This document shows positions 1 to 32,000 of a DNA stretch of 32,000 nt, in pieces (within the stretch, counting starts at the first letter, position 1; every line of letters starts with the position of its first letter). Position numbers and translations under genes: made by a program. Below the pieces are notes generated by a model. It was not told the origin of the DNA and did no database searches. It saw only the letters and a program-made list of their open reading frames with translations. The DNA comes from Candidatus Iainarchaeum sp. (GTDB lineage Archaea > Iainarchaeota > Iainarchaeia > Iainarchaeales > CSSED10-239), in NCBI GenBank assembly GCA_028700115.1, contig JAQVTI010000005.1, forward strand, positions 1 through 32,000, in the 5' to 3' direction.

Positions 1-3000
1 AGAAGTAATAATTCTAACTTTTCCTTTAACTTTTCCTTTATATCCAATTTGTCCTTTTATTTCTTGAACTTTTGTTTCTTGTTTTTCTAAAGCTAAATTT
101 AATTTATCTAATGTTTTATTTATATCCCCTGTATATAATTTTCCTTGATAATAAACAAATCCTTTTTCTCTTTGTTTTATTTTTTTTAACATTAAAGATT
201 TATTTTTAACATCTCCATTAAATATATCATCTGGAAGAACAAATCTATATTTTCCTTCTAAATAAGGATATTTTGTTTCTATAAAATTTTTAAATAAAGG
301 TTCTAAACTTTCATTATATTCTTGTGTTTTTTCTCTTAATTTTAATGCTCTTTGTTTAATCTTTTTTGGAGCTTTAAGATATAGTTCATCTGAAAAAACA
401 AGTAAAAAATCAACATGTGTCCAATAATTACTATGATTTTCTAAAACAAATTTATATTCTTTAACTGAAGTAATAAATTTATTATGTTTAAGATATTCTT
501 TCAAATTAAAATATATTTTTTCAAAATTATCCATTAAATCATTTGCTTTACTATAATCTTCATTAATTTGTTTTTCTATATATTTAAAAGCAGTAAATAA
601 TTCTTTTTGATTATAATAAGAATCCACTAAATCTATGCCATTATAGATTAAACAATTATATTTTAAAGGATAACCAATTGCTTTTATATATTTAAAATAA
701 TGTGTAAACATTTTATTACATGCATAAACTCTAGATAAAGAATATTCTCTAGAATGTTCTTTATGTAATTGTATTTTATATTCTGATTCAGGAAGTTCTA
801 AATTGTCTTTTTTAAGAATAGTTTTTAATTTATTATAAGGATAAGCTTTTCCTTTATAAAAAATATAACCATTTTCTTTTCTATTCTTTATAACATATAG
901 TTCTTTTTTTGTAAAAGCTCTTTTAAATAAAATTAAAGCTTCAGAAGGTAAAATATAATCTACATATTCTTTATATTTTTTAAATTTATTATTAATTAAA
1001 TTTCTAAATATAATATCTACATTATTAATATAATTTTGAGTTTTTTCTCTATATTCTAAAGAAATTTTCTTAAATTTATTATCAACTCCAGAAATATTAG
1101 GAGAAACATAAAATACAGACATATAATTTAAAAAACGCCAAGTATTATCTAAAAATTCTTTTAATTCTTTTAAAGTTTTTATATTTTTTTCTAATTTAAA
1201 ATAAGCTTTTACTTTATCCCAATATTTATCATGCAATCTACTAATATTTGAAATATATTTCTTATCAGATTTATATTTATCAATTATATTTTCATAAATC
1301 TTATTTATAGAATTAAAATCATACCAGTAACTATTTGAATTATCTTTATTAATATAAATAAAATTATCTAATGAAAAATCCACAATGTATTTATCAGAAA
1401 CTTTATAATTACCCATATATTCTAAATAATTAAAAAATAAAGTTCTTTCTCTAGTATATAATTTAGTTAATTTTATTTGTTCAATTTTAGAATCAATTAC
1501 AATATTATCTTTTTTTAAAACTTTATTTAAATCTTTTAAATCATATAATTTACAATTATATAAAAAACTACCATTTTTTTTTCTATTTTCTATAGTTTTA
1601 ATCTCTTTTTTAGTTAAATTTCTATTTTCTAATAAATATACTTCTTCTGGTAAAATATGATATGCTAAATGTTTTAAATTAGAAAATTCATTTTCAAAAA
1701 AATCAACAAAAACAGAACCTATATCATTTACAAGATATTGTGTATTTTTTCTTATCTTCAAACATTTAGATTTATATTTTTGTGGGATTTCTTTAATTTC
1801 TGGAACTACATAAGTTACAGCCATAGGACCATAAAAATTAACTGCAGTTTCATAATATTTTTTTAATTCTTTAATATTTTTAATTTTCTTTTCTTTTTTT
1901 AAATAAGGTAATAATTTATTCCAAAATTTATAAAATTCTTTTTCAATCCATTCAAAATAGTCTTTTTTAGAATTATATTTATTAACAATACTTTTATTAA
2001 TTTCAATTAATTGTTTTTTATTATAATAACTAGAAATTAAATCAGAATTAGGATAAAACAAATAAACTAGATTTTCTACATTCTTACCAGTATACTTTTT
2101 ATTAATTTTGTAATTAGAATCACACCATAAACTACAATAAAAAATAGAATGCTCTCTTGTAAATGTTTTTTCTAATTTAATTATATTATTAAAACAGATT
2201 TTATTTTCATAAATTTCACAGTTATTTCTTTTATCAAGTATATCATTAGATTTTGTAATATTTTCTATGATTTCTAAAAATCTATAATTATTATTTTTTA
2301 CTTTATTATACAACTTATTTTGAACAGTAGGAAATAATTGATCTGTATTTGTTCTTAATTTTAAAGCTTTTTCACACAATTCATTATTTTTCATATCTCC
2401 TAATATAAAATTAATAATAAATCCAGAAAATAATAAAATCACAAACTTTTTATTAAAAACTAATTTTGAATTTTTTAATAATTTATTATAATTAAATTTA
2501 TATTCATCTAATAATTTATCTAATTCTAACTTATCTAATAAATTAAAACTTTCTTTCATCAATTTAATATTATTTTTAATAGTATATCCTTTTACAACTC
2601 CATTTTTATAATCTCCAAATGTATTATTTATATCTTTTCTATTCCATTTCAATATATTTTCACAAATATTTAAATAAGAAAATAACCAAATATCATACAT
2701 AAATATAGGAGTTTCTCTAGTAAATTCTAATTCAAATTCAATTTTATTTTCTGAAACATCTTTTTCTTTTTTAATTTTAATTTTGTTTTTCAAAGTTGTA
2801 ATTGGTCTTGATTGTGTAATATAAATTTTATTTTTTTCAATTGCCCATTCAATATCACAAGGAAAACTATAATGATCTTCAATCTTTTTAATAATTTTAG
2901 ATAAATCAATAATTTCTTTATCAGAAAGAACTTGACTTTCACTTACTTTTTGATCTAATTTTTCCCATTTCGTTCCTTTTCTAAGACATTTATATAATGC

Positions 3001-3729
3001 TTTTTTTTGAATATTTACATTTTTATCTAAAATTTCAAATTTATCTTTTAAAACAACATAAGAATCAGGAGTTACTTGTCCAGAAACAATTGCTTCTCCA
3101 AGACCATATCCTGCTTCAATTATCATTTGATTATAATCTTCAGTTACAGGATGAACAGAAAAAGCAATTCCTGACTTTTCAGAATCTACCATTTTTTGAA
3201 TAACTACAGCAACTGAAACGTTCTTATTATGTAATTTCTTTTCAAATCTATAAAAAATAGCTCTAGGAGTAAATAAAGATGCAAAACATCTTTTTACATT
3301 TTCAATTAATCTTTTTTCATTAGTATTTAAAAAAGTATCAAGTTGACCTGCCCAAGCTGCACTTTTTGAATCTTCAGAAGTTGCAGATGATCTAACAGCA
3401 ACATGTTTAGTTTTAAGTTTTTTAAAAGAAGAAATTATTTCTTTAGAAATATCTTTTGGCATTTCTTTTAAATTAATAAGAGCTTGTATTTTTTCAGATG
3501 CCTTTTCAATTGTAGAAACATCTTTTATTTTTACAGTTTTTAAAATAGACTCAATTTCAATATTTAAATCAGTTTCTTCTAAAAATCTATTATAAGCAGA
3601 AGACAAAACAACAAATCCATTTGGAACAGAAATACCAGAAGAATACATTTCTCCTAAAGAAGCTCCTTTTCCACCAGCAATTTCTACTGAGTCTTTGTTT
3701 AAATCTTTAAAAAATTCAATAAATTTCAT
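1..3729 (-). CDS. PEP-utilising enzyme family protein. It has a PPDK_N-type ATP-grasp N-terminus, four tandem ~190-240 aa modules, and the beginning of a swivel phosphohistidine domain. It is truncated at the C-terminus by the window edge.
   Basis: This ORF is not in the supplied track because it has no stop codon in the window. My hand translation of the minus strand from the ATG at 3729-3727 stays open for all 1243 codons down to position 1. It contains PPDK_N hallmark motifs: MKFIEFFKDLNKDSVEIAGGKGASLGEM, VAVRSSATSEDS, GYGLGEAIVSGQVTPD and DIEWA...YITQSRPIT. The last residues, GQIGYKGKVKGKVRIITS, resemble the entry into the PEP-utiliser mobile (His) domain. Confidence 0.85.
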   Translation of the reverse strand, partial: MKFIEFFKDLNKDSVEIAGGKGASLGEMYSSGISVPNGFVVLSSAYNRFLEETDLNIEIESILKTVKIKDVSTIEKASEKIQALINLKEMPKDISKEIISSFKKLKTKHVAVRSSATSEDSKSAAWAGQLDTFLNTNEKRLIENVKRCFASLFTPRAIFYRFEKKLHNKNVSVAVVIQKMVDSEKSGIAFSVHPVTEDYNQMIIEAGYGLGEAIVSGQVTPDSYVVLKDKFEILDKNVNIQKKALYKCLRKGTKWEKLDQKVSESQVLSDKEIIDLSKIIKKIEDHYSFPCDIEWAIEKNKIYITQSRPITTLKNKIKIKKEKDVSENKIEFELEFTRETPIFMYDIWLFSYLNICENILKWNRKDINNTFGDYKNGVVKGYTIKNNIKLMKESFNLLDKLELDKLLDEYKFNYNKLLKNSKLVFNKKFVILLFSGFIINFILGDMKNNELCEKALKLRTNTDQLFPTVQNKLYNKVKNNNYRFLEIIENITKSNDILDKRNNCEIYENKICFNNIIKLEKTFTREHSIFYCSLWCDSNYKINKKYTGKNVENLVYLFYPNSDLISSYYNKKQLIEINKSIVNKYNSKKDYFEWIEKEFYKFWNKLLPYLKKEKKIKNIKELKKYYETAVNFYGPMAVTYVVPEIKEIPQKYKSKCLKIRKNTQYLVNDIGSVFVDFFENEFSNLKHLAYHILPEEVYLLENRNLTKKEIKTIENRKKNGSFLYNCKLYDLKDLNKVLKKDNIVIDSKIEQIKLTKLYTRERTLFFNYLEYMGNYKVSDKYIVDFSLDNFIYINKDNSNSYWYDFNSINKIYENIIDKYKSDKKYISNISRLHDKYWDKVKAYFKLEKNIKTLKELKEFLDNTWRFLNYMSVFYVSPNISGVDNKFKKISLEYREKTQNYINNVDIIFRNLINNKFKKYKEYVDYILPSEALILFKRAFTKKELYVIKNRKENGYIFYKGKAYPYNKLKTILKKDNLELPESEYKIQLHKEHSREYSLSRVYACNKMFTHYFKYIKAIGYPLKYNCLIYNGIDLVDSYYNQKELFTAFKYIEKQINEDYSKANDLMDNFEKIYFNLKEYLKHNKFITSVKEYKFVLENHSNYWTHVDFLLVFSDELYLKAPKKIKQRALKLREKTQEYNESLEPLFKNFIETKYPYLEGKYRFVLPDDIFNGDVKNKSLMLKKIKQREKGFVYYQGKLYTGDINKTLDKLNLALEKQETKVQEIKGQIGYKGKVKGKVRIITS

Positions 3730-3763
3730 ATAGATATATTATATATAATCTTTTTAAATAAAA

Positions 3764-4426
3764 CTATTTTCTTTCTAAAAAACATAAAAATCTTTTCTTA
3801 TAATTATTTGTACCATACTCAAGTCTTCTAATCTCTTCAATCTTAAAATCTTTAGAAAACAAACTAGTTATTTCTTTTTTAGACAAAGGATATGAATACA
3901 TATCAATTATTTCATTATAATAAATTTTTTTATTTTTAAAAGTCTCTTCAGATCTGTCAAAACAAAAAATTAAAATTTTAGAACCTTTTTTAGTTAGTTT
4001 ATTAAGGACTTTAAGATAATCTAATCTTTTTTCTGGAGAGATGTTATGAAAAAGCCCAGCATCTAATACAAAATCAAAAGGCTTTTTTGGCATCTTTTCA
4101 GAAAAGACATCTAAAGTCCTAAATTTAAGTTTATTTGAAACATATGTATTTTTTGCAATAGAAATAATTTTTGAAGAAATATCTACTCCTAAGACCTTAA
4201 AACCCTTTTTTACAAGAAAAAAAGAATAATACCCATTCCCACATCCAAGATCAATAGCTTTAGAAGGTTTAACCCACCCAGATTCAATAACCTCTTTAAA
4301 CCAAAAAGAGACTTTTGTTCTAATCCAAGGAAGTTTTTTTATATTTGTAGAAACATAAGAAGAATAAACTTTATTCCAATTGTTTTTATAATTTTTAAAA
4401 TTATTTATACTATTTTTAAAAATCAT
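3764..4426 (-). CDS. Class I SAM-dependent methyltransferase
   Basis: The protein has the motif I signature AIDLGCGNGYYSFFLVKKGFKVLGVDIS, followed by FDFVLDAGLFHNI and KKGSKILIF. The track ORF begins at a TTG (4459). The first ATG is at 4426 (MIFKNSINN...), which also avoids overlap with the upstream gene. The stop codon is TAG. Confidence 0.8.
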   Translation of the reverse strand: MIFKNSINNFKNYKNNWNKVYSSYVSTNIKKLPWIRTKVSFWFKEVIESGWVKPSKAIDLGCGNGYYSFFLVKKGFKVLGVDISSKIISIAKNTYVSNKLKFRTLDVFSEKMPKKPFDFVLDAGLFHNISPEKRLDYLKVLNKLTKKGSKILIFCFDRSEETFKNKKIYYNEIIDMYSYPLSKKEITSLFSKDFKIEEIRRLEYGTNNYKKRFLCFLERK

Positions 4427-4442
4427 AATAAACCTACAAAAT

Positions 4443-4895
4443 TTAATTATCAAAAACAATACTAGAAACTCTAGTAAATTTATCTGCTTCTTTTATTGAA
4501 TTTAAGACTATTAAATAATTTTTATAAGCATTTTTAAAATCATTTGTTTTTGTAAAAAGTTTATATTTTTTATTTTCATTTTCTAAAAAATAATTAAAAT
4601 ATGAATCTAATATTTTTGTTTTTGTTTGAAGATCTAAACAAGTTTGTTTAATATTTAACATTTTTTTTCTTAAAATAATTTTTTTAGAAGGATCATTTTC
4701 TATTAAATAAGTCTTAAGTTCATCTTTTCTTGTAAAGAAAAAATCTGATTTTAGAATATTTTCAAAAGCAGACAATATATCTTTTAAACTTTTATTTATC
4801 TCTTCAAATTCATCTTTTAAATCATTATATTCTTTAAACTTTTTTAGCTTTTCAAGTCTTTTTTTTTCTATTATACTCTTTATATATTTCTTCAT
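4443..4895 (-). CDS. Hypothetical protein of ~150 aa, Lys/Glu/Asn-rich and probably helical
   Basis: This is a long ORF in very AT-rich DNA, tightly packed and co-directional with the methyltransferase. The track start at 4904 is a GTG that lies inside an AGTGAT Shine-Dalgarno-like motif, and the ATG is at 4895 (MKKYIKSII...). I recognise no family. Confidence 0.5.
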   Translation of the reverse strand: MKKYIKSIIEKKRLEKLKKFKEYNDLKDEFEEINKSLKDILSAFENILKSDFFFTRKDELKTYLIENDPSKKIILRKKMLNIKQTCLDLQTKTKILDSYFNYFLENENKKYKLFTKTNDFKNAYKNYLIVLNSIKEADKFTRVSSIVFDN

Positions 4896-5056: not shown

Positions 5057-5059
5057 ATC

Positions 5060-5659
5060 CTATCTAGATCCTTGTGCAATTCTTTCAATTTCATCTTTTC
5101 TTTTAACAGCATAACTTTTTTGATCATTTTTAGATGCAGCAATAAGTTCTTCTGCTAAAGAAATTGCCATATCTTTTCTAGTTTTATATGTGGCTTTAAA
5201 TGGTGCTAATGCTATATTTTTCAAAGCTTCATCAAGTCTTTTTATTGGTGCAATATCAACTGCTTGATTATAAGTTATTCCACCTCTTTGAAGTCTAATA
5301 ATGTCTTCTCTAGGTGCTGAATTTTCTATTGCAGATATAAAAACTTGCATAGGATTTTCTTTAGTAACTTTATTAATATGATCAAATGCTAAATCTACTG
5401 CTTTAATCATTTTTTCTTTTTTTCCACAAGCAAATTTACCTCTTAAAAACTTACCAGAAAGTTTTTTTTTCCCTTGCCCAGATCTCATCATTTTATTTAC
5501 AAGTCTTTCAACAACAGGAACTTTTGCTTTTTCAACAAGTGTACTTTTATTAGATCCATAGGTATGTGGAACTTCTTTTTCTTTAAAAGAAACATATTTT
5601 GCAATACCTAAATCTTTACTTACAACATCATTTGTAGTCCATTTTCCAAAAATTAACAT
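5060..5659 (-). CDS. rps7: 30S ribosomal protein S7 (uS7)
   Basis: The 199-aa product (...VERLVNKMMRSGQGKKKLSGKF...AIENSAPREDIIRLQRGGITYNQAVDIAPIKRLDEALKNI...) shows the typical archaeal/eukaryotic uS7 pattern. It follows rps12 as in the conserved str-type cluster. It has an ATG start and a TAG stop. Confidence 0.95.
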   Translation of the reverse strand: MLIFGKWTTNDVVSKDLGIAKYVSFKEKEVPHTYGSNKSTLVEKAKVPVVERLVNKMMRSGQGKKKLSGKFLRGKFACGKKEKMIKAVDLAFDHINKVTKENPMQVFISAIENSAPREDIIRLQRGGITYNQAVDIAPIKRLDEALKNIALAPFKATYKTRKDMAISLAEELIAASKNDQKSYAVKRKDEIERIAQGSR

Positions 5660-5709: not shown

Positions 5710-6135
5710 CTATCTTTTAACCTTTTCTTTTTTACCTGATCTAAGCATTTCTAAAGATTGACCATTTACTTTTACAACCTTATACTTAACACCCCAAAGA
5801 TCCCCAACAGGACCTCCTTTTCTTCCACCAATTCCTTCAACTGTAACTTGATCATGAATTTCTATAAATTTAATAGCTTTATCTTTTGGTGCAAGTGCAG
5901 TAAGTTCTTTTCCATTTTTAATTAACTTAACTCTAACACATTTTCTAATCCCAGAATTAGGCTGTCTTGCAGTAATTCCTTTTTTTTCTAAAACAATTCC
6001 TTTTGCTTGAGGAGCACCTCTTAAAAGTTCTTTCTTTTCTTTTACTTTTACACTTCTTTTATGTCTAGGATCTTTTTTATTCCATTTTTTTCTATCTTTA
6101 ATATTTTTTTTTGCTGCAAATTCTCCGTTTGCCAT
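5710..6135 (-). CDS. rps12: 30S ribosomal protein S12 (uS12)
   Basis: The product contains ...[46 protein letters not shown]...[29 protein letters not shown]. The track start (6144) is the GTG inside the SD-like AGGTGA. The ATG at 6135 ([10 protein letters not shown]) lies 5 nt downstream of that motif. Confidence 0.95.
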
Positions 6136-6164: not shown

Positions 6165-6659
6165 TTATTTCTTTTTAATTTTAACTAATTTTTTAAACAT
6201 TTCATCTTCTTGAATTGGTTTTTCATCTTCTTCTTTTTTTCTTATTTCTTTTAATTTTTTTACTTTTTCTTTTTCTATTTTTTTTTCTTCTTTTTTAGCT
6301 TTCTTTTCTGCTTTAATTTTTACTTTTGAATTTTCTTTAATAACTTCTTCTTTTGAATCAATAACATCCATAATTGAAGCTTGACCAAAATCAATAATTG
6401 CAAGAACAGAAACACTAAATGGTTTTCCACATACAGACCCAAGTTCATATCCATTCTCTGGATAAAATACCATTTTTATATTTAATAATTTTGCATAATA
6501 TTCTAATTGTTTTTTTTTAATATCTTTAATAGAAGAACTCACAACTATTAATTTTGGTTCTCCAACCAAACATTCTTTTATAGTTTCATTTATACCTAAA
6601 ACTATTTTCCCAGTATCAACTGTATTTCTTAATTGTGTATTAAATTTACTTAAATTCAT
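6165..6659 (-). CDS. rpl30e: 50S ribosomal protein L30e with a 64-aa Lys/Glu-rich C-terminal extension
   Basis: Residues 1-100 (..[16 protein letters not shown]...PKLIVVSS...[46 protein letters not shown]) match the L30e/L7Ae-fold L30e pattern. The gene sits in the canonical position after rpoA''. Residues 101-164 are a low-complexity KE-rich tail. Confidence 0.85.
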
Positions 6660-6948: not shown

Positions 6949-8118
6949 TTATTCCTCTTTTTCAATTAATTTTTCTTGTTTTTTTATCATTTTCTTTAAA
7001 TGTTTAGGATCTAATGTTAATTTAATATTTCCTGTTCCTGAAGAAATTGGTTGACCAACAATCATATTTTCAGTTATCCCAGTTAATGGTTCTATTTCCC
7101 CATAAAATGAAGCATTTAAAATATGCTTTACAGTTTCTTCAAATGAAGCTCTAGCAAATGGAGAATTTTTATGCCCAGTAATTCCTGTTCTAACAATTCC
7201 TTTTACTTTCCCACTAGCACACATTAAATCTGCAAGAACATAAATATGTCTTTTATTTAAACTAATTCCATTTGCCTTAAAAGTATAATATAACTCTCTT
7301 ACAATTGATTCTCTTGCAGCTTCTATTCCTAAAACTTTATTAATTTCATTAATATCATTAGTAACAGTTCTATTTAAATCAATTTCTTCAAGTTTTAAAA
7401 TTTCAGAAAGATTACTTCCTTTTGTAACAATAACTTTTTCTCCATTTTCTTCAATAATTACTACTTTTTCAATTGATTTAATTCCAAATAATGGTATTTT
7501 TTCCCATTTTAATAAAGATTTTCTTATTTCATATAAAGATGTAGATTTATCAAAAACAAAATTAATTCCATTTTTATTTGGTGTAAATCTTTTAGATGCA
7601 TAAATATCATCAATTTTATCATACACTAAAGTCATAACTTCTTCTTTATTTAAATCTAATTCTAAAATTTTTTCATCATTTGAAATAAATGAAACAGTTC
7701 TATTTTCAAAATCTTCTTCAAAATGTCCAATATCCTTAACTTTTATATCTATTAAAGAATTTACAAATTTATTTATTTGTTTATCATTTTTAAAAAAATC
7801 TTTATTAAGATATATTTTCATTGATGGATATTTTGCATTAAGTCTACCATCAACAATTTCTATAACTCTTTGTATTCCTTGACCAACAGAAACTTCTAAA
7901 GATCCTGCATAGTGTTTTGTTCTTAATGTTAATTGAGTTCCAGGTTCTCCAATTGATTGAGCTGCAATTAGTCCAATTGCATCTCCTGGAGTTACTAAAG
8001 AATCATTATATCTATTTGTAACAATTTCAATTAATTTTTTTTTTTTAGAATCTGTAAATTTTTTTTTCACACAATAATTTTCAATTCTATCCAAAATAAT
8101 TTTTGGTAATTCTCTCAT
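6949..8118 (-). CDS. rpoA2: DNA-directed RNA polymerase subunit A''
   Basis: The 389-aa product contains ...PGDAIGLIAAQSIGEPGTQLTLRTKHYAG... and C-terminal ...RASFEETVKHILNASFYGEIEPLTGITENMIVGQPISSGTG. It corresponds to the C-terminal third of the largest RNAP subunit, as a separate gene in the usual archaeal manner. Confidence 0.96.
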   Translation of the reverse strand: MRELPKIILDRIENYCVKKKFTDSKKKKLIEIVTNRYNDSLVTPGDAIGLIAAQSIGEPGTQLTLRTKHYAGSLEVSVGQGIQRVIEIVDGRLNAKYPSMKIYLNKDFFKNDKQINKFVNSLIDIKVKDIGHFEEDFENRTVSFISNDEKILELDLNKEEVMTLVYDKIDDIYASKRFTPNKNGINFVFDKSTSLYEIRKSLLKWEKIPLFGIKSIEKVVIIEENGEKVIVTKGSNLSEILKLEEIDLNRTVTNDINEINKVLGIEAARESIVRELYYTFKANGISLNKRHIYVLADLMCASGKVKGIVRTGITGHKNSPFARASFEETVKHILNASFYGEIEPLTGITENMIVGQPISSGTGNIKLTLDPKHLKKMIKKQEKLIEKEE

Positions 8119-8165: not shown

Positions 8166-10751
8166 CTATTCATGGAAAAAATTAATATTTTTTCCAAGAT
8201 ATGCTTTTTCTGGAGAAAGTCCATCATCACCATAAATATACTGTATATACTGTCCATCTGCTGTTTCTACAGATAATTTATCTGTTACAACTAAATCTTT
8301 TAAAGCATTTGAAAGTCTTCTATACAAATATCCAGAAACTTTTGTTGCAACACCTGTATCAATTTCACCTTGTCTTCCACCTATAGAATGTACAAAATAT
8401 TGTTTAGGATCTAACCCATCAAAAAAGTTAGATGTTACAAATCCATAATCCATAAGTGATTTTGTTCCAACAAGATTTGTACTTAAAAATCTATTTGAAA
8501 AACCTGCTTTTGGTCTTCCTGTTCTTACAGTTACAAGCCCCCAAAGTCCAACCATATTTACAATATTTGTAAGTCTTCCTCTAGATCCTCCAACACTTGC
8601 AAGCATAACAGAATGATTATTTGCAATTATTCTTTCATTAAAAATTTCATTAAACTTTAAATCTAAAATTTCATTAGAAACTTCATTTTTAGTTTCCCCA
8701 GCTGCAGAAATCATTTCAAGTTCAAATGTTTCTTCTAAATTTTTTCCAGATATTAATGGTAAAGTTTTATTTTCAAACTTTCTTATAATCCCATTTGTTT
8801 TTGCAACTAATTTTTTAACTTTTTCATCCATACTTTTTCTAAGTTTTTCTGGAGCATTATATTCATCTAAAGCAACAGTAAATCCTTTTTTAGAAAAAGT
8901 ATAAAAAACTAATTTACAAAGCTTATAATAAAATTCAACAAGTTTATCTTCAGGATAATGTCTAGAAATAACATCTATTAAATTTCTATGTTTTGTCATT
9001 TTTTCATCTAAAACTCCTGAAATTAATTTTCCTTTTTCAATTTTTAAAGAACAATCATATTTTTCTATATCTTTTTTTGTTATTTTTCCTTTAAGTTCTT
9101 TCAAAATAGTATATAACTTATTATTATATTCTATAGATAAATCTTTAGGAATAATTTGACTAACAATTAATTTACCAGAATACATTCCTTTTCCTCTATC
9201 TGAAGGAGGAAGTTCTTTTATACCAATTGAATATAACATTTCCATAGCTTCTTTTTTTGTAAAAATAGTATCTTTTTTTGTAAGTAAAAATGACCCAGAA
9301 ATTATGTCTTCTACAGGAGTAATCAATGGATTCCCATCTCTTAAACTAATTATATGTTTTTCAACCATCATTAAATTTTTTATTTCAGCAATAGAAGATT
9401 CACTTTGTGGGGCATGTATTTGCATTTCATCTCCATCAAAATCTGCATTATATGGAGCACATGCAATTGGATTTAATCTAAATGTTTTCCCTGGCAATAT
9501 TTTTACTTTGTGACCCATAATTGAAACTCTATGTAATGTAGGTTGTCTATTAAAAATAACTACATCACCATCTACAAGATTTCTTTTAACAATCATTCCT
9601 TCTTCAAGTGAATCTATAATATCTTTTTTAAATTCAGGAGATACAATTTTTCTTCTTCCATTTTTTGTAATTATATATTTTACCATATCTTTTTCTATAT
9701 ATTCTTTAATTTTTGGGAGATTCCAAAAAGTAATTTTTTCAGGAAAAGTTAATGTTTTTGCAACTTGTTCTGGAACTCCAAGTTCATCAATTGCAATTTC
9801 TGTAGAGGGAGTTATTGTAGATCTAGATGCAGAATTAACTCTTTTTCCAATTAAATTATATCTAAATCGTCCTTTTTTTCCTTGAAGTCTTTGAGCAAGA
9901 GTATTTAATGGTCTTCCAGATCTATGTTTTGCAGGTGGAACTCCTGCTGTATTATTATCAACATAAGTTGTTATATTATATTGTAAAAGATCCCATAAAT
10001 CTTCAACAATAATCTGTGGGGCTCCTGCATTAATATTTTCTAAAAGCCTATTATTTATTCTAACAATATTTAAAATCATATGTGTTAAATCACTTTCTGC
10101 AGTAATCACATTTTCTAAAGAAAGAGAAGGTCTTACAGTTACTGGAGGTACAGGAAGTGCACTTGAAATAAACCATTGTGGCTTTAGCTTATCAGAATAT
10201 CCAAATAAAAATAAATCATTATCTGGAACTTTTATAACCCAATCTAAAATTTCTGAAGCATACATTCTTTCTCCATCAAGATAAAAATTTGTAGGTTTAT
10301 CTAAAAGTAATTTAGGTTTTTCAAAACCACAATGTGGGCATTTTTTAATAGTTTTTATTCTTGTAATTAATTCCTTTACAGTTTTATCTATATCAAAAGA
10401 TTCTTTTAAAAAATCATTAATTTCTTCATCAGAAAGCATTATTCTTCCACAATCTTTACAAGTACATTGTAAAATAGAAAATATTTTTTCAGAAAATTTA
10501 GGGTGAATAACAGGTCTTACAAGTTCAATATGTCCAAAATGCCCAGGACAATCTTTCATAGTATGTCCACAAGTTTTACATCTAAGACCTGGAGAAATAA
10601 CTCCTAAATGAAGATCCATAACTCCTCTTTCAATAGGATATCCATCTTTATCATAAGTATCTGATCTAGATATTTCTACAGAAGACATTTTTCTAATAAT
10701 TTCTGGACTTAATATCCCAAATTCAATTGATTTAATTTTTTTAGTAGTCAT
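8166..10751 (-). CDS. rpoA1: DNA-directed RNA polymerase subunit A'
   Basis: The 861-aa product has the N-terminal zinc ribbon motifs (CKTCGHTMKDCPGHFGHIEL), the catalytic NADFDGDEM motif, and the FNRQPTLHRVSIMGH motif. Confidence 0.97.
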   Translation of the reverse strand: MTTKKIKSIEFGILSPEIIRKMSSVEISRSDTYDKDGYPIERGVMDLHLGVISPGLRCKTCGHTMKDCPGHFGHIELVRPVIHPKFSEKIFSILQCTCKDCGRIMLSDEEINDFLKESFDIDKTVKELITRIKTIKKCPHCGFEKPKLLLDKPTNFYLDGERMYASEILDWVIKVPDNDLFLFGYSDKLKPQWFISSALPVPPVTVRPSLSLENVITAESDLTHMILNIVRINNRLLENINAGAPQIIVEDLWDLLQYNITTYVDNNTAGVPPAKHRSGRPLNTLAQRLQGKKGRFRYNLIGKRVNSASRSTITPSTEIAIDELGVPEQVAKTLTFPEKITFWNLPKIKEYIEKDMVKYIITKNGRRKIVSPEFKKDIIDSLEEGMIVKRNLVDGDVVIFNRQPTLHRVSIMGHKVKILPGKTFRLNPIACAPYNADFDGDEMQIHAPQSESSIAEIKNLMMVEKHIISLRDGNPLITPVEDIISGSFLLTKKDTIFTKKEAMEMLYSIGIKELPPSDRGKGMYSGKLIVSQIIPKDLSIEYNNKLYTILKELKGKITKKDIEKYDCSLKIEKGKLISGVLDEKMTKHRNLIDVISRHYPEDKLVEFYYKLCKLVFYTFSKKGFTVALDEYNAPEKLRKSMDEKVKKLVAKTNGIIRKFENKTLPLISGKNLEETFELEMISAAGETKNEVSNEILDLKFNEIFNERIIANNHSVMLASVGGSRGRLTNIVNMVGLWGLVTVRTGRPKAGFSNRFLSTNLVGTKSLMDYGFVTSNFFDGLDPKQYFVHSIGGRQGEIDTGVATKVSGYLYRRLSNALKDLVVTDKLSVETADGQYIQYIYGDDGLSPEKAYLGKNINFFHE

Positions 10752-10822: not shown

Positions 10823-12640
10823 TTATTCAATTTTATCTCCAATATTTAATTTTGGATAAACTCCTAAAGATTTAAGCTCATCTAAAAGTAATTTAAATCC
10901 ATAATTTATTTTTACTTTAGAAATATTACCACCATCACATATAGGGCAATATCTTCTATTTCTTATTTTATCATCAATTGCTAAAACACCACAATCATCA
11001 CAAACATAAACTTCTAATTCATCAGCATCATCCATCAACTTTTCATGTAAAAGCATAGCAGCACCATGTGAAACTAAAGCATCACCTTCCATTTCACCAA
11101 ATCTTAATCCCCCACCTTTTTCTTTACCTTCAGTAGGTTGTCTTGTAAGAAGTTGTATAGATCCTCCATCTCTTGCTTGAATTTTATTTGTAACTACATG
11201 ATATAATCTTTTAAAAGAAATTGGACCAACAAAAATAGGCATATCTATCTTTTCACCTGTGGTTCCATTATAAAATGTTTCTTTTCCATCTTCTCTAAAA
11301 CCATATTTTTTAAGAAGTTTAAAAATATAATCTTTATCTGCATAATATGCAGTACCATCTATTTCATCACCAAGTAAAGCTCCTGCTTTACCAGCAATTG
11401 TTTCAAAAAGATGACCTAATGTCATTCTTGAAGGAATAGAATGCGGATTCATAATAAAATCTGGTTTAATTCCAGAAGCAGTAAAAGGCATATCTGCTTC
11501 ATCAACAACAGCACCAATAACTCCTTTTTGCCCATGGTGAGATGAAAATTTATCCCCAATTTGAGGAATTAAAGTAGTTCTTACTTTAACTTTTGCAAGT
11601 TTAATTCCCCCAACTGTTTGAGAAACTAAAACTCTATCAATAAAACCATCTAAATGCTTTCTTGCAGTAACAGAAGATTCTCTTCTATCTTCAGAAACAA
11701 TTCCAAAATCAGAAATTTCTTCTACAAATCTTGGTGGAGAACTCATACCTATAATTACTCCTCCATTTGGAACATATGATTCTACATTTGCAAGACCATC
11801 TATTCCTAAAGAAACATATGCTTCTTCTCCTCTATAACCTAAAATATTTTCTGAAGGCACAATAAATTCATCTGCTTGCCCTGAAGGATATCTATTTTCT
11901 TGAGCAGAATAAGATCTATAATAAGATGATCTTCCTAATCCTCTTTCAATCGAACCTTTATTTAAAATCATTGCATCAAGCATATTATATCCTTCAAAAG
12001 GCATAATTGCAACAACACAATTTTGAATCATTGGTCTTTTATCAATTCCAAGCATTTTTTCAGTTCTAGTTGTAACTAATGGTTTTTGAGGATAATATAA
12101 AACATGCATTTCTGTATCAAATCTGTTTTTATAATTTATAGAAGGAAGCCCAACTGCTTGTTTAAAAATTTTAGCACCAAAAATAGCTTTTCCAGCCATA
12201 TTATGATTAATAAAAGGAATCATAGATGAAATTATACTAAAAATTGCAGTCCCTGAAATTTCTAAATGTGTATGATCCGGAGTAATATCTTTTTCATCAA
12301 TTGCAACTAATGCATTTTCTTCTTCTTCTGCATCAAGATATTCAATTATTCCTTTTTCAATTAAATCATTCCAATGTAATTTATTTTCTTTAACTTCTTG
12401 ATAAATTTCTTTTGTAAGTTTAGATTTCCCATTATCTAAAATAATTAAAGGTCTTTGAAGTCTTCCAGAATCTGTACTTAAATAAAGTTCATTTATATCT
12501 TTTATATAAGAAATATTTATTTGGGCATCAATTTCTCCTTTTCGTCTTTTTTTAATAAGATCATTTTTTAATTTTTCAGGATTATTACTAAAACCTATTA
12601 AACTTCCATTTATATAAACTTTACATTTATTTATTGCCAT
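10823..12640 (-). CDS. rpoB1: DNA-directed RNA polymerase subunit B' (C-terminal half of subunit B)
   Basis: The 605-aa product contains GDKFSSHHGQKGV, MNPHSIPSRMTLG, GGLRFGEME and a C-terminal Cys4 zinc motif (CDDCG...CPICDG). Confidence 0.97.
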   Translation of the reverse strand: MAINKCKVYINGSLIGFSNNPEKLKNDLIKKRRKGEIDAQINISYIKDINELYLSTDSGRLQRPLIILDNGKSKLTKEIYQEVKENKLHWNDLIEKGIIEYLDAEEEENALVAIDEKDITPDHTHLEISGTAIFSIISSMIPFINHNMAGKAIFGAKIFKQAVGLPSINYKNRFDTEMHVLYYPQKPLVTTRTEKMLGIDKRPMIQNCVVAIMPFEGYNMLDAMILNKGSIERGLGRSSYYRSYSAQENRYPSGQADEFIVPSENILGYRGEEAYVSLGIDGLANVESYVPNGGVIIGMSSPPRFVEEISDFGIVSEDRRESSVTARKHLDGFIDRVLVSQTVGGIKLAKVKVRTTLIPQIGDKFSSHHGQKGVIGAVVDEADMPFTASGIKPDFIMNPHSIPSRMTLGHLFETIAGKAGALLGDEIDGTAYYADKDYIFKLLKKYGFREDGKETFYNGTTGEKIDMPIFVGPISFKRLYHVVTNKIQARDGGSIQLLTRQPTEGKEKGGGLRFGEMEGDALVSHGAAMLLHEKLMDDADELEVYVCDDCGVLAIDDKIRNRRYCPICDGGNISKVKINYGFKLLLDELKSLGVYPKLNIGDKIE

Positions 12641-14189: not shown

Positions 14190-14588
14190 TTAATCTTTAA
14201 CTACTCTTCTATAATATAAAGTTTCCCCAACATTTGAATTTTTTCTTTTAATTTCGATTATATCTCCAACTTTAACTTCTAAATGCCTAATTGCTTTATC
14301 AGAAATAAATATAATAGGCATTCTTTCTGAAGATAAGTCTTTTTCTGAAAGTTTTAAAACTTCTTCTTGATCTAAAATCCTATGCTCTGGGATATAACTA
14401 TGAATAACTTGATCTTTTAATCTTCTTTCTCTTCTATTTTTCTTTTTATATGCTTTTTCTTTTGGTTCTTTTTTTTCTTTTGTTTTTGATTTAGAACTAG
14501 TTATATCTAAGATTTCAACATCTTTAATTTCTTCTTTTGAAAAAACTTTTTTAGATTTTGTTTCTTTTTTTACCAAAATAAACACCAT
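14190..14588 (-). CDS. rpoH: DNA-directed RNA polymerase subunit H (Rpb5 C-terminal-domain homologue) with a ~60-aa Lys-rich N-terminal extension
   Basis: The C-terminal 70 aa (IPEHRILDQEEVLKLSEKDLSSERMPIIFISDKAIRHLEVKVGDIIEIKRKNSNVGETLYYRRVV) match the RpoH pattern. The gene is first in the rpoH-B-A cluster. It starts at an ATG at 14588, and there is no internal Met before the conserved domain. Confidence 0.85.
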   Translation of the reverse strand: MVFILVKKETKSKKVFSKEEIKDVEILDITSSKSKTKEKKEPKEKAYKKKNRRERRLKDQVIHSYIPEHRILDQEEVLKLSEKDLSSERMPIIFISDKAIRHLEVKVGDIIEIKRKNSNVGETLYYRRVVKD

Positions 14589-19459: not shown

Positions 19460-20323
19460 TTATTTTATATAATATTCTCTTAAAACATCATTTAAAACTT
19501 TAGTTCTAGCAAAAATATCTTTTAAATTATTAGAAACTAATATATTTAATTCTTTTCTTTCATTTTTCATTTTTTTTAAATTTATATTAAAATTATTTAT
19601 ATTATTATTAATTTCTTCAATTTTAGAATTTAATTCTGAAATAATTCTATATTTTATTTTTTGTTGATATTTGTTTTCTTCACTAGAAATTGAATCAAGA
19701 GATCTAGAAAAATAATATTCTTTTTTTGCTTCTTCTTTTAATTTTATTTTTTTAAGATTTTGTTGATTTATAAATTCAGTGATATTTTTTTTATTAAAAT
19801 GATTAATATATTCTATATGTTTATATAATTTATTAAGATTAGAACTATTTTCTAAATATAATTTTAAATTTAAATTAAACATTTTTAAAATTATTTTTTC
19901 ACTAGTATTCAATTTACCTGATTTTGAAAAATAACCATATATTTCTTTAAAGAAAGAATATACCTCTGTATTAGATTTGAAAATTGAATTGCTTTCTGGA
20001 ATTTTAGGCAAAGACGAAAATTTATATTTATCTTTAATATATTTTAAAAAATCTAGTGAATTTTTTGAATTATAATTAAATAATTCTAAATTATGAATAG
20101 ATGCATTTCTAAGATCTGCTTTATAATAATTTCCAAATCTAGATTCTTTTACATTTAAATAGTTATAAAAATTTATATTCTTATATTCTTCAAATTTATT
20201 TTTAAAAAAAGAAATTTTTGGTTTTAAATATTCAGAAGTTTTTTTAAACCTAATTTTTAATTGATTCTTATTTTTTTCAGAGTTAGATTTTTTATTATTT
20301 TTATTTGAATTATTTTTAATCAT
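19460..20323 (-). CDS. Hypothetical Asn/Lys-rich protein (287 aa)
   Basis: This is a long ORF with no recognisable family. The first 23 codons of the track ORF (up to 20392) overlap the tRNA-Pro gene and read through its GC-rich sequence, so I start the gene at the ATG at 20323 (MIKNNSNKNNKK...). The C-terminal third looks coiled-coil-like. Confidence 0.55.
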   Translation of the reverse strand: MIKNNSNKNNKKSNSEKNKNQLKIRFKKTSEYLKPKISFFKNKFEEYKNINFYNYLNVKESRFGNYYKADLRNASIHNLELFNYNSKNSLDFLKYIKDKYKFSSLPKIPESNSIFKSNTEVYSFFKEIYGYFSKSGKLNTSEKIILKMFNLNLKLYLENSSNLNKLYKHIEYINHFNKKNITEFINQQNLKKIKLKEEAKKEYYFSRSLDSISSEENKYQQKIKYRIISELNSKIEEINNNINNFNINLKKMKNERKELNILVSNNLKDIFARTKVLNDVLREYYIK

Positions 20324-20593: not shown

Positions 20594-21706
20594 TTATTTA
20601 TTCCAAAGATCCCAATATTTATTAAAATAATTAATATACTCTTTTGTAATATTTTCGTCATAAATAAAAATTATACTTTCATCATTATTTGAAATTCCAT
20701 TATTAGACAAATTCATAGAACCAGTCATAACAAAAGAATTATCAAAAATACAAAATTTATTATGCATACTTTCTGGATTTTTATCTTTTATTGTAAATAT
20801 ATTTTTATCAATTAATCTATCAAATTCTGAATAATTATCAATAGTTCTACTTTCTAAAATAAACCTTGAAGGAATTTCCTTAGAAGAAATAATATCTGTA
20901 ACTTCATCAATTGTAAAACTAAAAAACATACAATCAATAGAATTAGCAACTTCTAATTTTTCTAAAAAATGAGAATAACAATCTTCTTCTGGACAAAAAT
21001 AGGTTTCTATATTCCCAAATTGATTTATATAATAATTATTTTTTAGATCTAAACTAAAATTACCATCAAAAAAAGAATCTATTTTTTTCTTAAAAAACAA
21101 TGCTAATTCTTTATCTTCTAAAATTAAAATATTATTATTATTTTTATATACCCCATTTAATGTAAAATTCATAGAACCAATAAATATTTTTTTATTATCA
21201 AAAACACAAAATTTATTATGCATATAAGAAGAACTAGATGGATTAGATATTACAAAAATATTATTTGCTTTTAAATCCCCAATTTTAGAAGTTTTTGTAG
21301 AAGATCTTAAATAATCAGTCACAATTCTTACTTCTAAACCTTCTTTTTTTTTATCAATTAAAGAAGATGAAACTGCATCTAAACTAATATCATAAATCGC
21401 ACAATCAATACTTTCTTTTGAAGAATTAATTAAATTAATTAATTCAACTTCACAATTATCTTCTGGACAAAAATAAACTTCGCTATCAATTATTCTATCT
21501 TTAGACCCATAAACAATTTTATTTTTTAAATCCCCATAAATAATAGATGGTTTTTCTTTAATATTATTAATATCTATATTTATTAAATAATCTGAATTTA
21601 AATCAACTTTAGATAAATCTGTATTTTCTTCTCCAAAAAAAGAAATAATAATTAATAAAACTACAAAAAGTATTAAAATCCAAGTAATTATTTTCCCAAA
21701 ATTCAT
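20594..21706 (-). CDS. Phospholipase D / Nuc-like superfamily protein with two HKD motifs and an N-terminal membrane anchor
   Basis: Two HxK(x4)D-type motifs are present: HNKFCVFDNKKIFIGSMNFT and HNKFCIFDNSFVMTGSMNLS. Each is preceded by a similar YFCPE(D/E)(N/D)C...SIDC segment, indicating an internal duplication. The N-terminus IITWILILFVVLLIIISFF is a hydrophobic helix. Confidence 0.85.
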   Translation of the reverse strand: MNFGKIITWILILFVVLLIIISFFGEENTDLSKVDLNSDYLINIDINNIKEKPSIIYGDLKNKIVYGSKDRIIDSEVYFCPEDNCEVELINLINSSKESIDCAIYDISLDAVSSSLIDKKKEGLEVRIVTDYLRSSTKTSKIGDLKANNIFVISNPSSSSYMHNKFCVFDNKKIFIGSMNFTLNGVYKNNNNILILEDKELALFFKKKIDSFFDGNFSLDLKNNYYINQFGNIETYFCPEEDCYSHFLEKLEVANSIDCMFFSFTIDEVTDIISSKEIPSRFILESRTIDNYSEFDRLIDKNIFTIKDKNPESMHNKFCIFDNSFVMTGSMNLSNNGISNNDESIIFIYDENITKEYINYFNKYWDLWNK

Positions 21707-21787: not shown

Positions 21788-24472
21788 TTAAATAAATTTT
21801 CCACAAAAAAGATCTTTTCCCCCACCTTTTATTTTTTTAGAAACTTTATTTTCTAAATCTGAAATAATTTCAGAAATTTCAATTTGTGATTTAGGTCCTT
21901 TCCATATAAATACATTTAAATTATTATTATATATTGCAATAGTCTTATCTTGTGATTTAGAAATATCCTTTAATTTTTTAAAAATTTTTAAAATTTCTGA
22001 ACTATCTAAATTAAATTTTGCAATTATTTTTTTATCTAAAGTAGAAATTATACTTTTTGTTTCATAATCTGCAATTTTATGTTCTAATTTTTCAATATTT
22101 TTTCTTTGTTCTTTCCACTCTTTAAAAAACACATTAACTGTTTTAAATAATTCTACAGAAGAAACTGACAAAATTTCACTAGTTTTATCTAAAATATTTT
22201 CTTTTTCTCTAATATATCTTAAAGCAGATTTATATGTTGTAAAAATAATCCTGACAACACCATCTTGAACTGAATTTCTTTTAATAATCTTAAAAACACC
22301 AACTTTAGATGTATTATTTAAATGAAGACCAGCACAAGCTTGAACATCAATACCTAAAATTTCAATAATTCTAAGAGAATTCCCTGGAATTGCACCACCT
22401 TGATATAATCTAAATCCATATTTTTTTTCAGCTAGATCTTTATCTAATGTAAAAATATTTATATCAATTGAATCAAATATCCAATTATTAACTAATTCTT
22501 CAATTTGTATAATTTCACTATCTGTGATAGCTTTATAATGAGTAATATCTAAATGTGCTTGGTTTATATCTTTATAAGCCCCAGCTTGCCAAATATGATT
22601 TCCTAAAATTTGTTTACAAGCTGCATTTAATAAATGAGTCCCAGTATGTTGAGATCTAAGTTGCCTTTGTCTATCTACATCTACTAAAAGAACTACTGCT
22701 TGTCCAACATTTAATGTTTTTTGAAAATTATCTAAAATATGTAAAATCTTACCTTCAAAATTATAAACTTCTAAAACATCAAAAGACCCATTAATAGTCC
22801 CTTTATCAAAAGACTGCCCTCCTCCTTCTGGATAAAAAACAGTTTGATCTAAAATAACCAAATTTTTAGATGCATATATGATTTTTGAAACACATTCTGT
22901 TTTATCTTCATAATATATTTTTTTTGTATTTGAAAGCATTTTAATAATTTCTACATTTTCTTTTTCTAAAAGTTTTTCAATTTTATTATTTTCTTTTATT
23001 TTTTCAGTTTCATTACTTTGAGATATTAATTCAAAATAATTAGATGGTATTTTAATTTCTTTTTTTAATTTTAAAGAAGTTTGAATTATTTGTTCTTTAG
23101 TTATTCCATCACTTTTATAAAACATAACCATATCTTTTAAAGAAATATCTTTTCCTGAAGAAAAAAATAATTCTAATTTTTGTTTTGCTTTTATTTGATT
23201 TTCTAAATATTTTTTTCGTTCTTCTTCTAAAATATCACATGCTGATTTATATCCTTTAATAATTGTAGGATCAAATTCTTTTAAAGAATCTATATGAATT
23301 TTAAAAATCTGATTTAAATCTAAATCAAAAGAATATTTTCTTTGCATATCAAATATCCTTCTAGCTAAAATTCTAAGATTATATCCCCCTCCAGAATTAC
23401 TTGGTAAAAGTCCATCTGTACAAGTATATAAAAGTGTTTTAGTATGATCTGCAATTGCATATAATGCAAAAATAGGATCTAAAATTTCAAATAATTCTTT
23501 TTTTGAATATCCTAAATTTTCTGCAATTTTTTCTTGTTCTTTTTCTAAATTTTTTACTTCATCTATATTTAATTTAGATGAATCTTTATAAAAAGCTAAA
23601 AGTAATTTTTTATCAAAATTAATTTTTGTTTTCTTTTTTAAATAATCTAATACTTCTTTAAAAGTAATATCATAACTAGTAGGAGTTCCATTTGTATACC
23701 AAACAAGTCTTTCATAACCTGCACCCATATCTATAACAGGTCTTTCTAATTTTTTATGAGTTCCATTTTTTAAATCTTGAAACTCCATAAAAACACAGTT
23801 TCCTAATTCCACTCCATTTGCAAAATATTCCATTGAAGGCCCAAAATAACCTCCACCTTCCCAAACATCTTCTTTAAAGATTAAGTCTTTTTCTTTAACT
23901 CCAATAACTTTAGTTAAATATTCAAAATCAAGACTAATTGCTTCTTCTTTAAAATATGGTTTTTTTGGATCTGTATTAAATGCATGTTGCCCAAACATAA
24001 CAAATGTTGTATAATGTGTTCCAGTAACTCCTACATTTGAAACATCTCCAAATCAAATAGAAGTCTGTGGGACAATTAAAGGATCTGCTGGAGGTTTAAC
24101 TTCTCCATTTACAACATATGGTTGAAAATCTATAATTGAGGCATTTGTAAAATACAAATCACTTCTCCATCTAGGTATAACTGGATATCTTGGAATTGAA
24201 GTATGTCCATTTTTTTCAAAGAACTTTTCTATTTTTTTCCAACATTCAGTATAACTATATTCTTTTGTTTTTTTACCTAAAAAAGAAACACCCATACAAG
24301 AAGAATCAGAACAAATTTCTTTAGAAGAATCAAGTGTCCAAAATGGATCTCCACAATTTTTACAAATTTTTCTTTCATATCCTAATTTAGTAAGAGCCTT
24401 AACTTGATAATGTTCCTTCCAGTTTTTTTCAAACATAGGTCTAACTTGCTTTTTAAGTAAAGTTTCTGCCAT
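21788..24472 (-). CDS. alaS: Alanyl-tRNA synthetase, one reading frame interrupted by a single in-frame TGA (codon 140)
   Basis: Track ORFs 24053..24481 and 21788..23998 are in the same frame. Conserved AlaRS sequence (FGDVSNVGVTGTHYTTFV) continues through the 54 nt between them. The downstream part carries the editing motifs HTGTHLL and CAGLH and the C-terminal GGGK motif. The ATG is at 24472 (MAETLLKK). The track start at 24481 is a GTG. Confidence 0.85.
24053..24055 (-). other. In-frame TGA within alaS, at the position of the conserved active-site Arg
   Basis: The minus strand reads GTC CCA CAG ACT TCT ATT TGA TTT GGA GAT GTT TCA AAT GTA GGA, which translates as V P Q T S I * F G D V S N V G. 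By my recall of the family, this aligns to Q-x-[CS]-[IV]-R-...-D-[IL]-x-N-V-G. Confidence 0.8.
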
Positions 24473-24617
24473 AATTTCCACATTTATAAATATATAAATA
24501 TATTTTAAAATATATAATATATATAAAGAAGTATTTGTTTTTAAACTTTATTAATTTATAAAAAAATAAAAATAAATATAAAAATAGAAATATTAAAAAA
24601 TATAAATTTTAAAAAAA

Positions 24618-31980: not shown

Positions 31981-32000
31981 AGATATATTTGTATCAATTG

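Follow-up and report, generated by a model that had tools for sequence, protein, structure and literature searches.

Absence of TGA stops from a 32-kb window of an AT-rich Iainarchaeota genome very probably reflects small sample size and gene spacing under the standard code

We find that the archaeon from which this stretch of DNA derives very probably uses the standard genetic code, with TGA acting as an ordinary stop that a canonical aRF1 recognizes, and with the lack of TGA stops in the analyzed stretch (32,000 nt, hereafter the window) reflecting a small sample and the spacing of its genes. The result is mainly a negative one: nothing in the window points to a novel genetic code among DPANN archaea, and the lineage is to be annotated with table 11. 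The source assembly (965 kb, 22% GC, 89% complete, genome size ~1 Mb) belongs to the Iainarchaeota/Diapherotrites group of the DPANN. Stops were tallied genome-wide over ORFs of at least 90 aa with overlaps resolved (n = 851); the gene set consists of longest-ORF calls made with no trained gene finder, such that starts and junction classes are approximate. A genome of the same genus (referred to hereafter as G004) served for ortholog comparison, and 169 ortholog pairs provided the table of stop substitutions.

Results

Stop codons of the window

Direct reading of each stop codon showed that the 19 complete genes of the window end in TAA (11) or TAG (8), and none in TGA, exactly as an earlier sequence-only reading had recorded at every position it listed.

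3764..3766 (-): TAG stop of a 231-aa methyltransferase-like ORF
4443..4445 (-): TAA stop of a gene overlapping the following one by 17 nt (no other junction of the window is tight)
5060..5062 (-): TAG stop of ribosomal protein S7 (G004 ortholog also TAG)
5710..5712 (-): TAG stop of ribosomal protein S12
6165..6167 (-): TAA stop of an L30e-like gene
6949..6951 (-): TAA stop of RNA polymerase subunit A''
8166..8168 (-): TAG stop of RNA polymerase subunit A'
10823..10825 (-): TAA stop of RNA polymerase subunit B'
12678..12680 (-): TAA stop of RNA polymerase subunit B''
14190..14192 (-): TAA stop of an RpoH-like 132-aa gene
15900..15902 (+): TAG stop of a KaiC/RadA-like 239-aa gene
15974..15976 (-): TAG stop of ATP-dependent DNA ligase
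17799..17801 (-): TAG stop of prolyl-tRNA synthetase
19460..19462 (-): TAA stop of a 310-aa ORF
20594..20596 (-): TAA stop of a 370-aa phospholipase-D-like ORF
21788..24481 (-): alaS (alanyl-tRNA synthetase), an 897-codon frame with a single TGA inside and a TAA stop at 21788-21790
24618..24620 (-): TAA stop of histidyl-tRNA synthetase
26148..26150 (-): TAG stop of an 89-aa HU-like gene
26566..26568 (-): TAA stop of an 1804-aa ORF

The intergenic gaps of the window contain no ORF of at least 30 aa ending in TGA. Across the ~9,830 codons of the window genes the sole in-frame TGA is that of alaS at 24053-24055 (-), in agreement with the single occurrence previously noted in ~9,800 codons. The G004 ortholog of rpoB'' uses a TGA stop at the same end residue (485 vs 484 aa, aligned to the last residue).

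TGA terminates genes throughout the genome

The sequence-only reading had favored a TGA that is avoided or unassigned as a terminator, a view it would give up should TGA prove comparable to TAG genome-wide. This is what the genome displays: stops of the 851 ORFs comprise 584 TAA (69%), 140 TAG and 127 TGA (~15%), and raw ORFs of at least 300 aa give 232, 64 and 45, respectively. TGA stops are present on nearly every large contig at similar rates, which led us to reject the idea that the assembly is contaminated by an organism using a different code.

Several observations indicate that these are true gene ends. TGA-ended ORFs match full-length NCBIfam equivalog profiles through to their final positions, among them PriS, MutS (residues 6-795 of 818 matching profile positions 1-793 of 793), MutL (1-578 of 580; profile 1-610 of 611), thermosome (13-524 of 540; profile 4-520 of 520), iPGM (4-501 of 507; profile 1-499 of 504), and aRF1 (10-415 of 415; profile 3-403 of 403). 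C-termini match those of G004 orthologs in 21/22 TGA-ended genes, the partner stop being TAA or TAG in 15 of these 22 pairs; over all 169 pairs, TGA is matched with TAA in 12 + 16, with TAG in 3 + 2, and with TGA in 7. As expected of table 11, the standard code, genes are terminated by each of the three stops, and one stop replaces another at orthologous ends. The sole TGA-ended ORF shorter than its ortholog (C24:1786-2172) carries a frameshift, and readthrough was rejected for it.

The gene-length comparison that the sequence-only reading had proposed likewise gave no support to a sense TGA, in that ORFs of at least 300 aa lengthen by 1.7% when TGA is read as sense and by the same 1.7% in the TAG control; the median distance to the next stop is 7 codons past TGA and 9.5 past TAG. 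Screening for possible readthrough (frame open for at least 60 codons past the stop) returned 14 TGA and 9 TAG cases. In nine of the 14 TGA cases a separate gene follows, its start codon placed exactly 2 codons past the stop, and ten of the remaining cases, scanned against Pfam, show no domain across the stop (seven with different families or a one-sided domain, three without a family match). Among the screened cases, alaS is the only one recognized as a single gene spanning its stop.

Release factor, tRNAs, and in-frame TGA

Changes in aRF1 recognition or a tRNA with a UCA anticodon, two features that the sequence-only reading had singled out for inspection, were both looked for and neither was seen. 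The aRF1 gene (C11:1908-3155; TIGR03676 score 445.6 bits, cut-off 234.7) itself stops at TGA and encodes canonical NIKS, YWCDSSF (YxCxxxF), and GGQ motifs, leading us to reject a UGA-blind release factor. ARAGORN, run with and without introns, predicts 37 tRNAs, including a tRNA-Trp with anticodon CCA; none has a UCA anticodon (an absence that is not absolute in an 89% complete genome) and no tRNA-Sec was found among them. Selenocysteine recoding is not supported, there being no tRNA-Sec among these predictions, an alignment of the alaS TGA to Arg rather than Cys, and no notable local structure.

Alignment of 54,359 codons to G004 proteins revealed three in-frame TGA: the alaS codon (Arg), one at a Trp three residues short of a C-terminus, and one in the stretch of a GNAT gene that lies out of frame past its frameshift. 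In-frame lesions of the TAA and TAG types occur in these alignments as well. The many in-frame TGA at conserved Trp or Gly that a sense codon would leave were not found in these aligned codons, bearing out the earlier judgment that TGA is not used in a Mycoplasma-like or Gracilibacteria-like manner.

TGA stops gather at tight gene junctions

The distribution of TGA depends markedly on what follows the gene. For 61% of TGA stops the next gene overlaps or starts no more than 12 nt away; the TGA share of stops is 54% where genes overlap, 21% where the spacing is 0-12 nt, and 5-11% at all other (stand-alone) ends. NTGA overlaps account for 38/127 TGA stops, and a further class is formed by 12 TGA-N6-ATG junctions, TGA being used in 12/14 six-nt junctions here and in every one of those in three sampled relatives. 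The same junction pattern of TGA is observed in G004. The 16S 3' end (GGATCACCTCCT) can pair with GTGAT, and at the six-nt junctions TGA probably belongs to such a Shine-Dalgarno-like GTGAT.

At loosely spaced gene ends the TAG:TGA ratio is 124:50 (2.5-fold; binomial P = 2e-8), and 59:16 (3.7-fold) in G004; the earlier claim that base composition alone cannot explain the skew is upheld. Relatives within the order give loose-context ratios of 64:83 at 43% GC and 21:77 at 50% GC. Across the order the TGA share falls with GC (58% at 50% GC, 38% at 43%, 15% at 22-24%), and that of TAG lies between 12 and 21%. The trend matches a published TGA-versus-GC slope that is steeper in archaea (Ho and Hurst 2021, PMC8789281), TAG changing little as TGA drops (Ho and Hurst 2021, PMC8789281; Povolotskaya et al. 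2012, PMC3549826). The skew of TAG over TGA at stand-alone ends is real, but already described.

The window is not clearly beyond chance

The probability of drawing no TGA in 19 genes is 0.046 at the genome-wide share of 127/851, and 0.10-0.16 once the junction context of each gene is included, the window having one tight junction only and otherwise consisting almost entirely of well-spaced information-processing genes. Sliding 19-gene windows are TGA-free in 26 of 433 instances (6%), and TGA-free runs reach a maximum length of 33 genes in this genome. The 0.4% previously attached to an 8:0 split presupposes a TAG:TGA of 1:1; at the actual loose-end ratio of 124:50 the value is 0.067. The window still sits in the lower tail after context correction (P ~0.1) and its eight TAG stops are somewhat high (P ~0.03, post hoc). 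Zero TGA in the window is not clearly beyond chance, and small-sample noise, which the sequence-only reading had offered as its alternative, holds.

TGA is concentrated at tightly coupled junctions in this very AT-rich genus and rare at stand-alone ends. The window very probably lacks TGA because its 19-gene sample is small and its genes are well spaced, with a single tight junction.

The in-frame TGA of alaS

The alaS gene is present as a single copy and its frame is otherwise intact, with no second lesion in 897 codons; its orthologs in relatives are full-length and uninterrupted. The TGA (24053..24055, -) replaces the invariant motif-2 arginine, aligning to the R of SIRF/CIRL in archaeal AlaRS structures 2ZZE, 2ZTG, and 3WQY. 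Its column holds AGA, AGG, or CGT (Arg) in 10 relatives and R also in the G004 ortholog, no stop being present in any of the 11/11 relatives examined, and a single A-to-T change (AGA to TGA) accounts for it. As judged by these alignments, the change is private to this assembly.

RNA folding downstream of the TGA gives nothing beyond shuffled sequences (z = -1.4). The contig is represented in landfill-metagenome runs (X1 and X2), of which X1 contains 91% of sampled 31-mers from the 1.5 kb around the TGA; in the Logan contigs of the sequencing runs, 0/3 sampled words from the 61 bases centered on it were found (three words only, and so a weak hint). No uninterrupted, near-identical alaS product was found among public proteins (83% identity for the nearest one of full length), exact alaS fragments are absent from the public protein collection, and a 42-nt alaS pattern with N at the variant base had no match in JGI metagenome contigs. 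Other lesions in the assembly—a TAA in ftsZ (C34:238-240), two TAG in one small gene (starting at C24:14344 and C24:14362), and the frameshift in the GNAT gene—mean that in-frame lesions cover all three stop types. We conclude that these, together with that of alaS, are sporadic lesions or assembly variants and not recoding; the alaS TGA itself most likely entered the consensus as a minority variant or an error, or else arose very recently by nonsense mutation.

Discussion

Two readings would place TGA outside its standard role. Were it effectively unassigned or poorly terminated, and hence avoided as both stop and sense codon (the reading preferred when the window was seen in isolation), then 0/19 TGA stops in the window and the 2.5-fold and 3.7-fold deficits relative to TAG at loose ends would follow naturally; yet 127 of 851 ORFs are TGA-ended, aRF1, MutS, MutL, and thermosome among them at their profile ends, orthologous stops swap freely between TGA and TAA or TAG, the recognition motifs of aRF1 are canonical, and a fall in TGA at low GC is the known archaeal trend (PMC8789281). 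We regard this reading as very improbable. Outright reassignment, whether to Trp (code 4), to Gly (code 25), or to Arg in a new code suggested by alaS, we hold to be extremely unlikely: an in-frame TGA at an invariant Arg of a single-copy, essential gene speaks for it, but there is no tRNA with a UCA anticodon, only three in-frame TGA occur in the aligned codons (alongside TAA and TAG lesions), ORFs gain no length above the TAG control, none of the relatives shares the alaS TGA, and the C-terminal homology tests already refute it.

The remaining alternatives accept TGA as a stop. Selection against a leaky UGA, acting beyond mutation and GC pressure and making the 8:0 of the window an extreme draw, could explain the loose-end skew in both genomes, and UGA reportedly leaks more than either other stop (background cited in PMC8789281); we consider it doubtful as the TAG:TGA ratio reverses smoothly with GC in the order, and the literature ascribes such a GC pattern to forces outside release-factor biology. 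For alaS, the TGA could be a true majority allele in a cell living on low-level readthrough by near-cognate tRNA-Arg, Trp, or Cys, a scenario compatible with the single copy, the otherwise intact 897-codon frame, and reports that prokaryotic genes often tolerate in-frame stops (PMC7918605). Against this, the TGA is private to the assembly, the catalytic arginine is lost such that only Arg insertion would restore function, no stimulatory RNA structure is apparent, none of the three sampled 31-mers at the site appears in Logan contigs of runs that hold the flanking sequence, and the accompanying lesions are typical of consensus errors or strain variants, making the scenario improbable. A real and fixed UGA, with enzyme made only by Arg-inserting readthrough at the catalytic motif-2 position, is quite improbable too; if true, the cell could not do without stop-codon suppression, even though its aRF1 is canonical and it lacks a suppressor tRNA.

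Stop tallies from ~20 genes are unreliable, given how strongly the use of TGA varies with gene spacing, and equal numbers of TGA and TAG should not be expected in very AT-rich genomes even though the two codons have the same composition. Nonsense and frameshift lesions in core genes such as alaS and ftsZ call for caution before pseudogenes are assigned.

TGA encodes Trp in table 4 (Mycoplasma/Spiroplasma) and Gly in table 25 (Gracilibacteria/SR1). The genome studied here resembles these in its low GC, small size, and a window without TGA stops, but differs in that TGA ends 15% of genes, no tRNA(UCA) is predicted, the release factor is canonical, and in-frame TGA is not used at Trp or Gly positions (save for one TGA/Trp 3 residues from a C-terminus). 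Relative to AT-rich archaea on table 11, stop usage is the same with nothing materially different, although the genus occupies the lowest extreme of GC, with TGA below TAG at stand-alone ends. In-frame stops under purifying selection have been argued to be widespread in bacteria (Belinky et al. 2021, PMC7918605), and alaS resembles such cases in carrying one nonsense codon in an otherwise intact, conserved gene, with similar lesions in ftsZ and the small gene; it differs in that no conservation of the stop was found in relatives, and in that the source is a metagenome-assembled genome, for which the odds of an artefact of consensus or assembly are no lower than those of a real allele. Finally, the 38 NTGA overlaps and 12 six-nt junctions are akin to the ATGA/GTGA/TTGA start-stop overlaps and Shine-Dalgarno-in-stop coupling of prokaryotic operons; at six-nt junctions TGA is used near-exclusively in this genome and in the three relatives sampled.

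Stop codons of the window and of the whole genome

The window opens contig C2 (its first 32 kb) of an assembly of 964,791 bp in 47 contigs, with an overall GC content of about 22%, 89% completeness and 1.1% contamination. Its gene content is archaeal, comprising split RNA polymerase B''/B' and A'/A'', RpoH, S12, S7 and L30e together with an ATP-dependent DNA ligase, ProRS, HisRS and AlaRS, the last having Candidatus Iainarchaeum and Diapherotrites MAGs as its nearest named relatives. Two loci deserve separate mention, the second of which must truly start further downstream since its listed start lies within a tRNA gene:

26148–26417, 89-aa bacterial-type HU-like DNA-binding protein (from translation) in an archaeal genome
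19460–20427 region, 310-aa ORF whose listed TTG start (20392) falls inside the same-strand tRNA-Pro gene (20353–20427)

Re-reading the 19 complete genes (the window genes sum to about 9,830 codons) returned exactly the 11 TAA and 8 TAG stops listed by the sequence-only reading and no TGA, and the intergenic gaps of the window hold no TGA-ended ORF of at least 30 aa. One reading offered for this pattern, that TGA is disused as a terminator, is overturned by the refuting criterion set in the sequence-only reading itself: genome-wide, TGA stops (127) are comparable in number to TAG (140) and TAA accounts for 584 (greedy, overlap-resolved ORFs of at least 90 aa). TGA stops occur on nearly every large contig, and two real ones fall just past the window on C2 (genes C2:39454–41940 and C2:42966–50309). 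Raw ORFs 300 aa or longer, among which chance ORFs are almost absent at this GC content, give TAA 232, TAG 64 and TGA 45. Reading TGA as sense adds 1.7% to the length of the ORF set, as does reading TAG as sense; the median distance to the next in-frame stop is 7 codons past TGA versus 9.5 past TAG. This is a standard-code genome in which TGA is a normal terminator.

Comparison with full-length NCBIfam equivalog profiles and with orthologs shows that TGA-ended ORFs stop at true gene ends.

TGA-ended ORFs aligned to equivalog profiles (ORF residues; profile positions)
MutS: 6–795 of 818; 1–793 of 793
MutL: 1–578 of 580; 1–610 of 611
Thermosome: 13–524 of 540; 4–520 of 520
iPGM: 4–501 of 507; 1–499 of 504
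PriS: 11–413 of 414; 13–317 of 323
aRF1: 10–415 of 415; 3–403 of 403

From 400 kb of the single-contig, same-genus genome G004 we obtained 169 reciprocal-best-hit pairs, 22 of them with a TGA-ended gene in the studied genome. The C-terminus lies within 5 residues of that of the G004 ortholog in 21 of the 22 (the lone mismatch being a frameshifted GNAT gene, C24:1786–2172), and the G004 partner stops at TAA or TAG in 15. For rpoB'', the ortholog in the G004 block syntenic to the window has its TGA stop at the residue position at which the window gene has TAA.

Decoding machinery

The release factor aRF1 (C11:1908–3155) can be aligned over its full length with solved a/eRF1 structures, and its NIKS, YxCxxxF (YWCDSSF) and GGQ motifs are all intact. 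Its own gene stops at TGA, followed after 6 nt by a 424-aa ORF in the same frame (C11:1908–4436 overall), such that a code-4 reading would wrongly fuse the two. ARAGORN identified 37 tRNAs in this 89%-complete genome, including intron-bearing tRNA-Trp(CCA) and tRNA-Tyr; none of the 37 carries a UCA anticodon, and tRNA-Sec was not found among them.

The tRNA-Trp(CCA) gene (C22:16962–17153) has a 116-nt predicted intron, recovered only at ARAGORN's maximum intron setting. A tRNA-Ile with anticodon UAU adjoins tRNA-Ile(GAU) (C33:66954–67030 and C33:63612–63687), suggesting that a UAU tRNA, instead of a modified CAU tRNA, may decode AUA. There are three copies of tRNA-Thr(GGU) (C4:3520–3593, C7:40–114, C24:407–478) and two of tRNA-Thr(UGU) (C29:21916–21988, C30:6428–6500); four of these five are no more than about 500 nt away from the end of a contig, which suggests repeated or redundantly assembled ends.

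Gene junctions and base composition

Use of TGA is strongly tied to what comes after the gene.

TGA share of stops by downstream context
Next same-strand gene overlapping: 54%
Next start at 0–12 nt: 21%
Next start at 13–40 nt: 8.5%
Next start at 41–120 nt: 5%
Next start beyond 120 nt: 11%
Convergent gene ends: 6%

In thirty-eight cases the TGA stop and the start codon that follows share a 4-nt NTGA overlap. Where stop and start are separated by a 6-nt spacer, TGA is used at 12 of 14 junctions (for example C11:3153–3164 and C33:35857–35868), and at 7 of 7 in three sampled relatives. These junctions often read (A/G)GTGAT, complementary to the 16S 3' end; as the 16S rRNA here ends in GGATCACCTCCT, the GTGAT can pair with it, and from this complementarity we infer that such TGAs double as part of a putative ribosome-binding site.

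The window contains one tight junction (a 17-nt overlap, 4443–4459); its other 18 gene ends are loosely spaced or convergent. This scarcity of tightly coupled junctions makes the absence of TGA more likely. The probability of no TGA in 19 stops is 0.046 naively and 0.10–0.16 with context classes; TGA-free sliding windows of 19 genes make up 6% of all in the genome, and the longest run of genes lacking a TGA stop is 33, on C38. The chance of about 0.4% earlier attached to the 8:0 TAG:TGA split presumed equal likelihood, and becomes 0.067 under the ratio at loose (well-spaced or stand-alone) gene ends, 124:50. The missing TGA stops are thus an accurate observation and a modest sampling fluctuation, not a biological feature.

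Stop usage in relatives
G004, same genus: GC 24.5%; TAA 227, TAG 69, TGA 52; loose-context TAG:TGA 59:16
G036, same order: GC 43%; TAA 152, TGA 138, TAG 75; loose-context TAG:TGA 64:83
G035, same order: GC 50%; TGA 106, TAA 56, TAG 22; loose-context TAG:TGA 21:77

Across these genomes TGA declines steeply as GC drops and TAG changes little. The residual skew of TAG over TGA is real, lineage-wide and already known; this contrast in GC dependence is documented in both bacteria and archaea, with release factors not the explanation (PMC8789281).

In-frame stops in alaS and elsewhere

The sole in-frame TGA among the window genes lies in alaS:

21788–24481 (−), alaS, single-copy in the genome
24053–24055 (−), in-frame TGA interrupting an otherwise unbroken 897-codon frame

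At this site 10 relatives have an Arg codon (AGA, AGG or CGT) and the G004 ortholog likewise has Arg; in solved archaeal AlaRS structures the aligned residue is the R of SIRF/CIRL. One A-to-T substitution in AGA suffices to produce the TGA. A search of 40 relatives found no stop-carrying ortholog, the frame contains no second lesion, local RNA structure at the TGA is not notable (z = −1.4), and the tRNA set includes no tRNA-Sec that would point to selenocysteine decoding. Of the 31-mers sampled from 1.5 kb around the TGA, 91% are present in one landfill-metagenome run and 76% in another; within the 61 bases centred on it, none of the 3 sampled words occurs in any run, a small sample which hints that the independent contigs of these two runs differ at or near the TGA. 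The in-frame stop of alaS is an isolated lesion.

Alignment of the studied genome, translated in six frames, with 348 G004 proteins (54,359 aligned codons) returned one in-frame TGA at alaS, together with lesions at other loci:

C34:238–240, in-frame TAA in ftsZ at the start of C34, at a G004 Gln position, with 79% identity on both sides; possibly an assembly error near the contig edge
C24:14146–14463, small conserved gene with two in-frame TAG codons (from 14344 and 14362) in place of Tyr and Trp
C29:956–958, TGA in a 128-aa gene where the G004 ortholog (84% identical) has Trp, 3 residues before the ortholog's stop; apparently a TGG-to-TGA change trimming the final residues
C24:1786–2172, GNAT acetyltransferase broken by a frameshift near 1790, whose out-of-frame stretch accounts for a further TGA and two TAA codons in the raw lesion list

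Because the lesions include all three stop types, they give no sign of a TGA-specific change in decoding. They are consistent with consensus or strain-variant artefacts of metagenome assembly, and also with the sporadic in-frame stops that have been reported in prokaryotic genes (PMC7918605).
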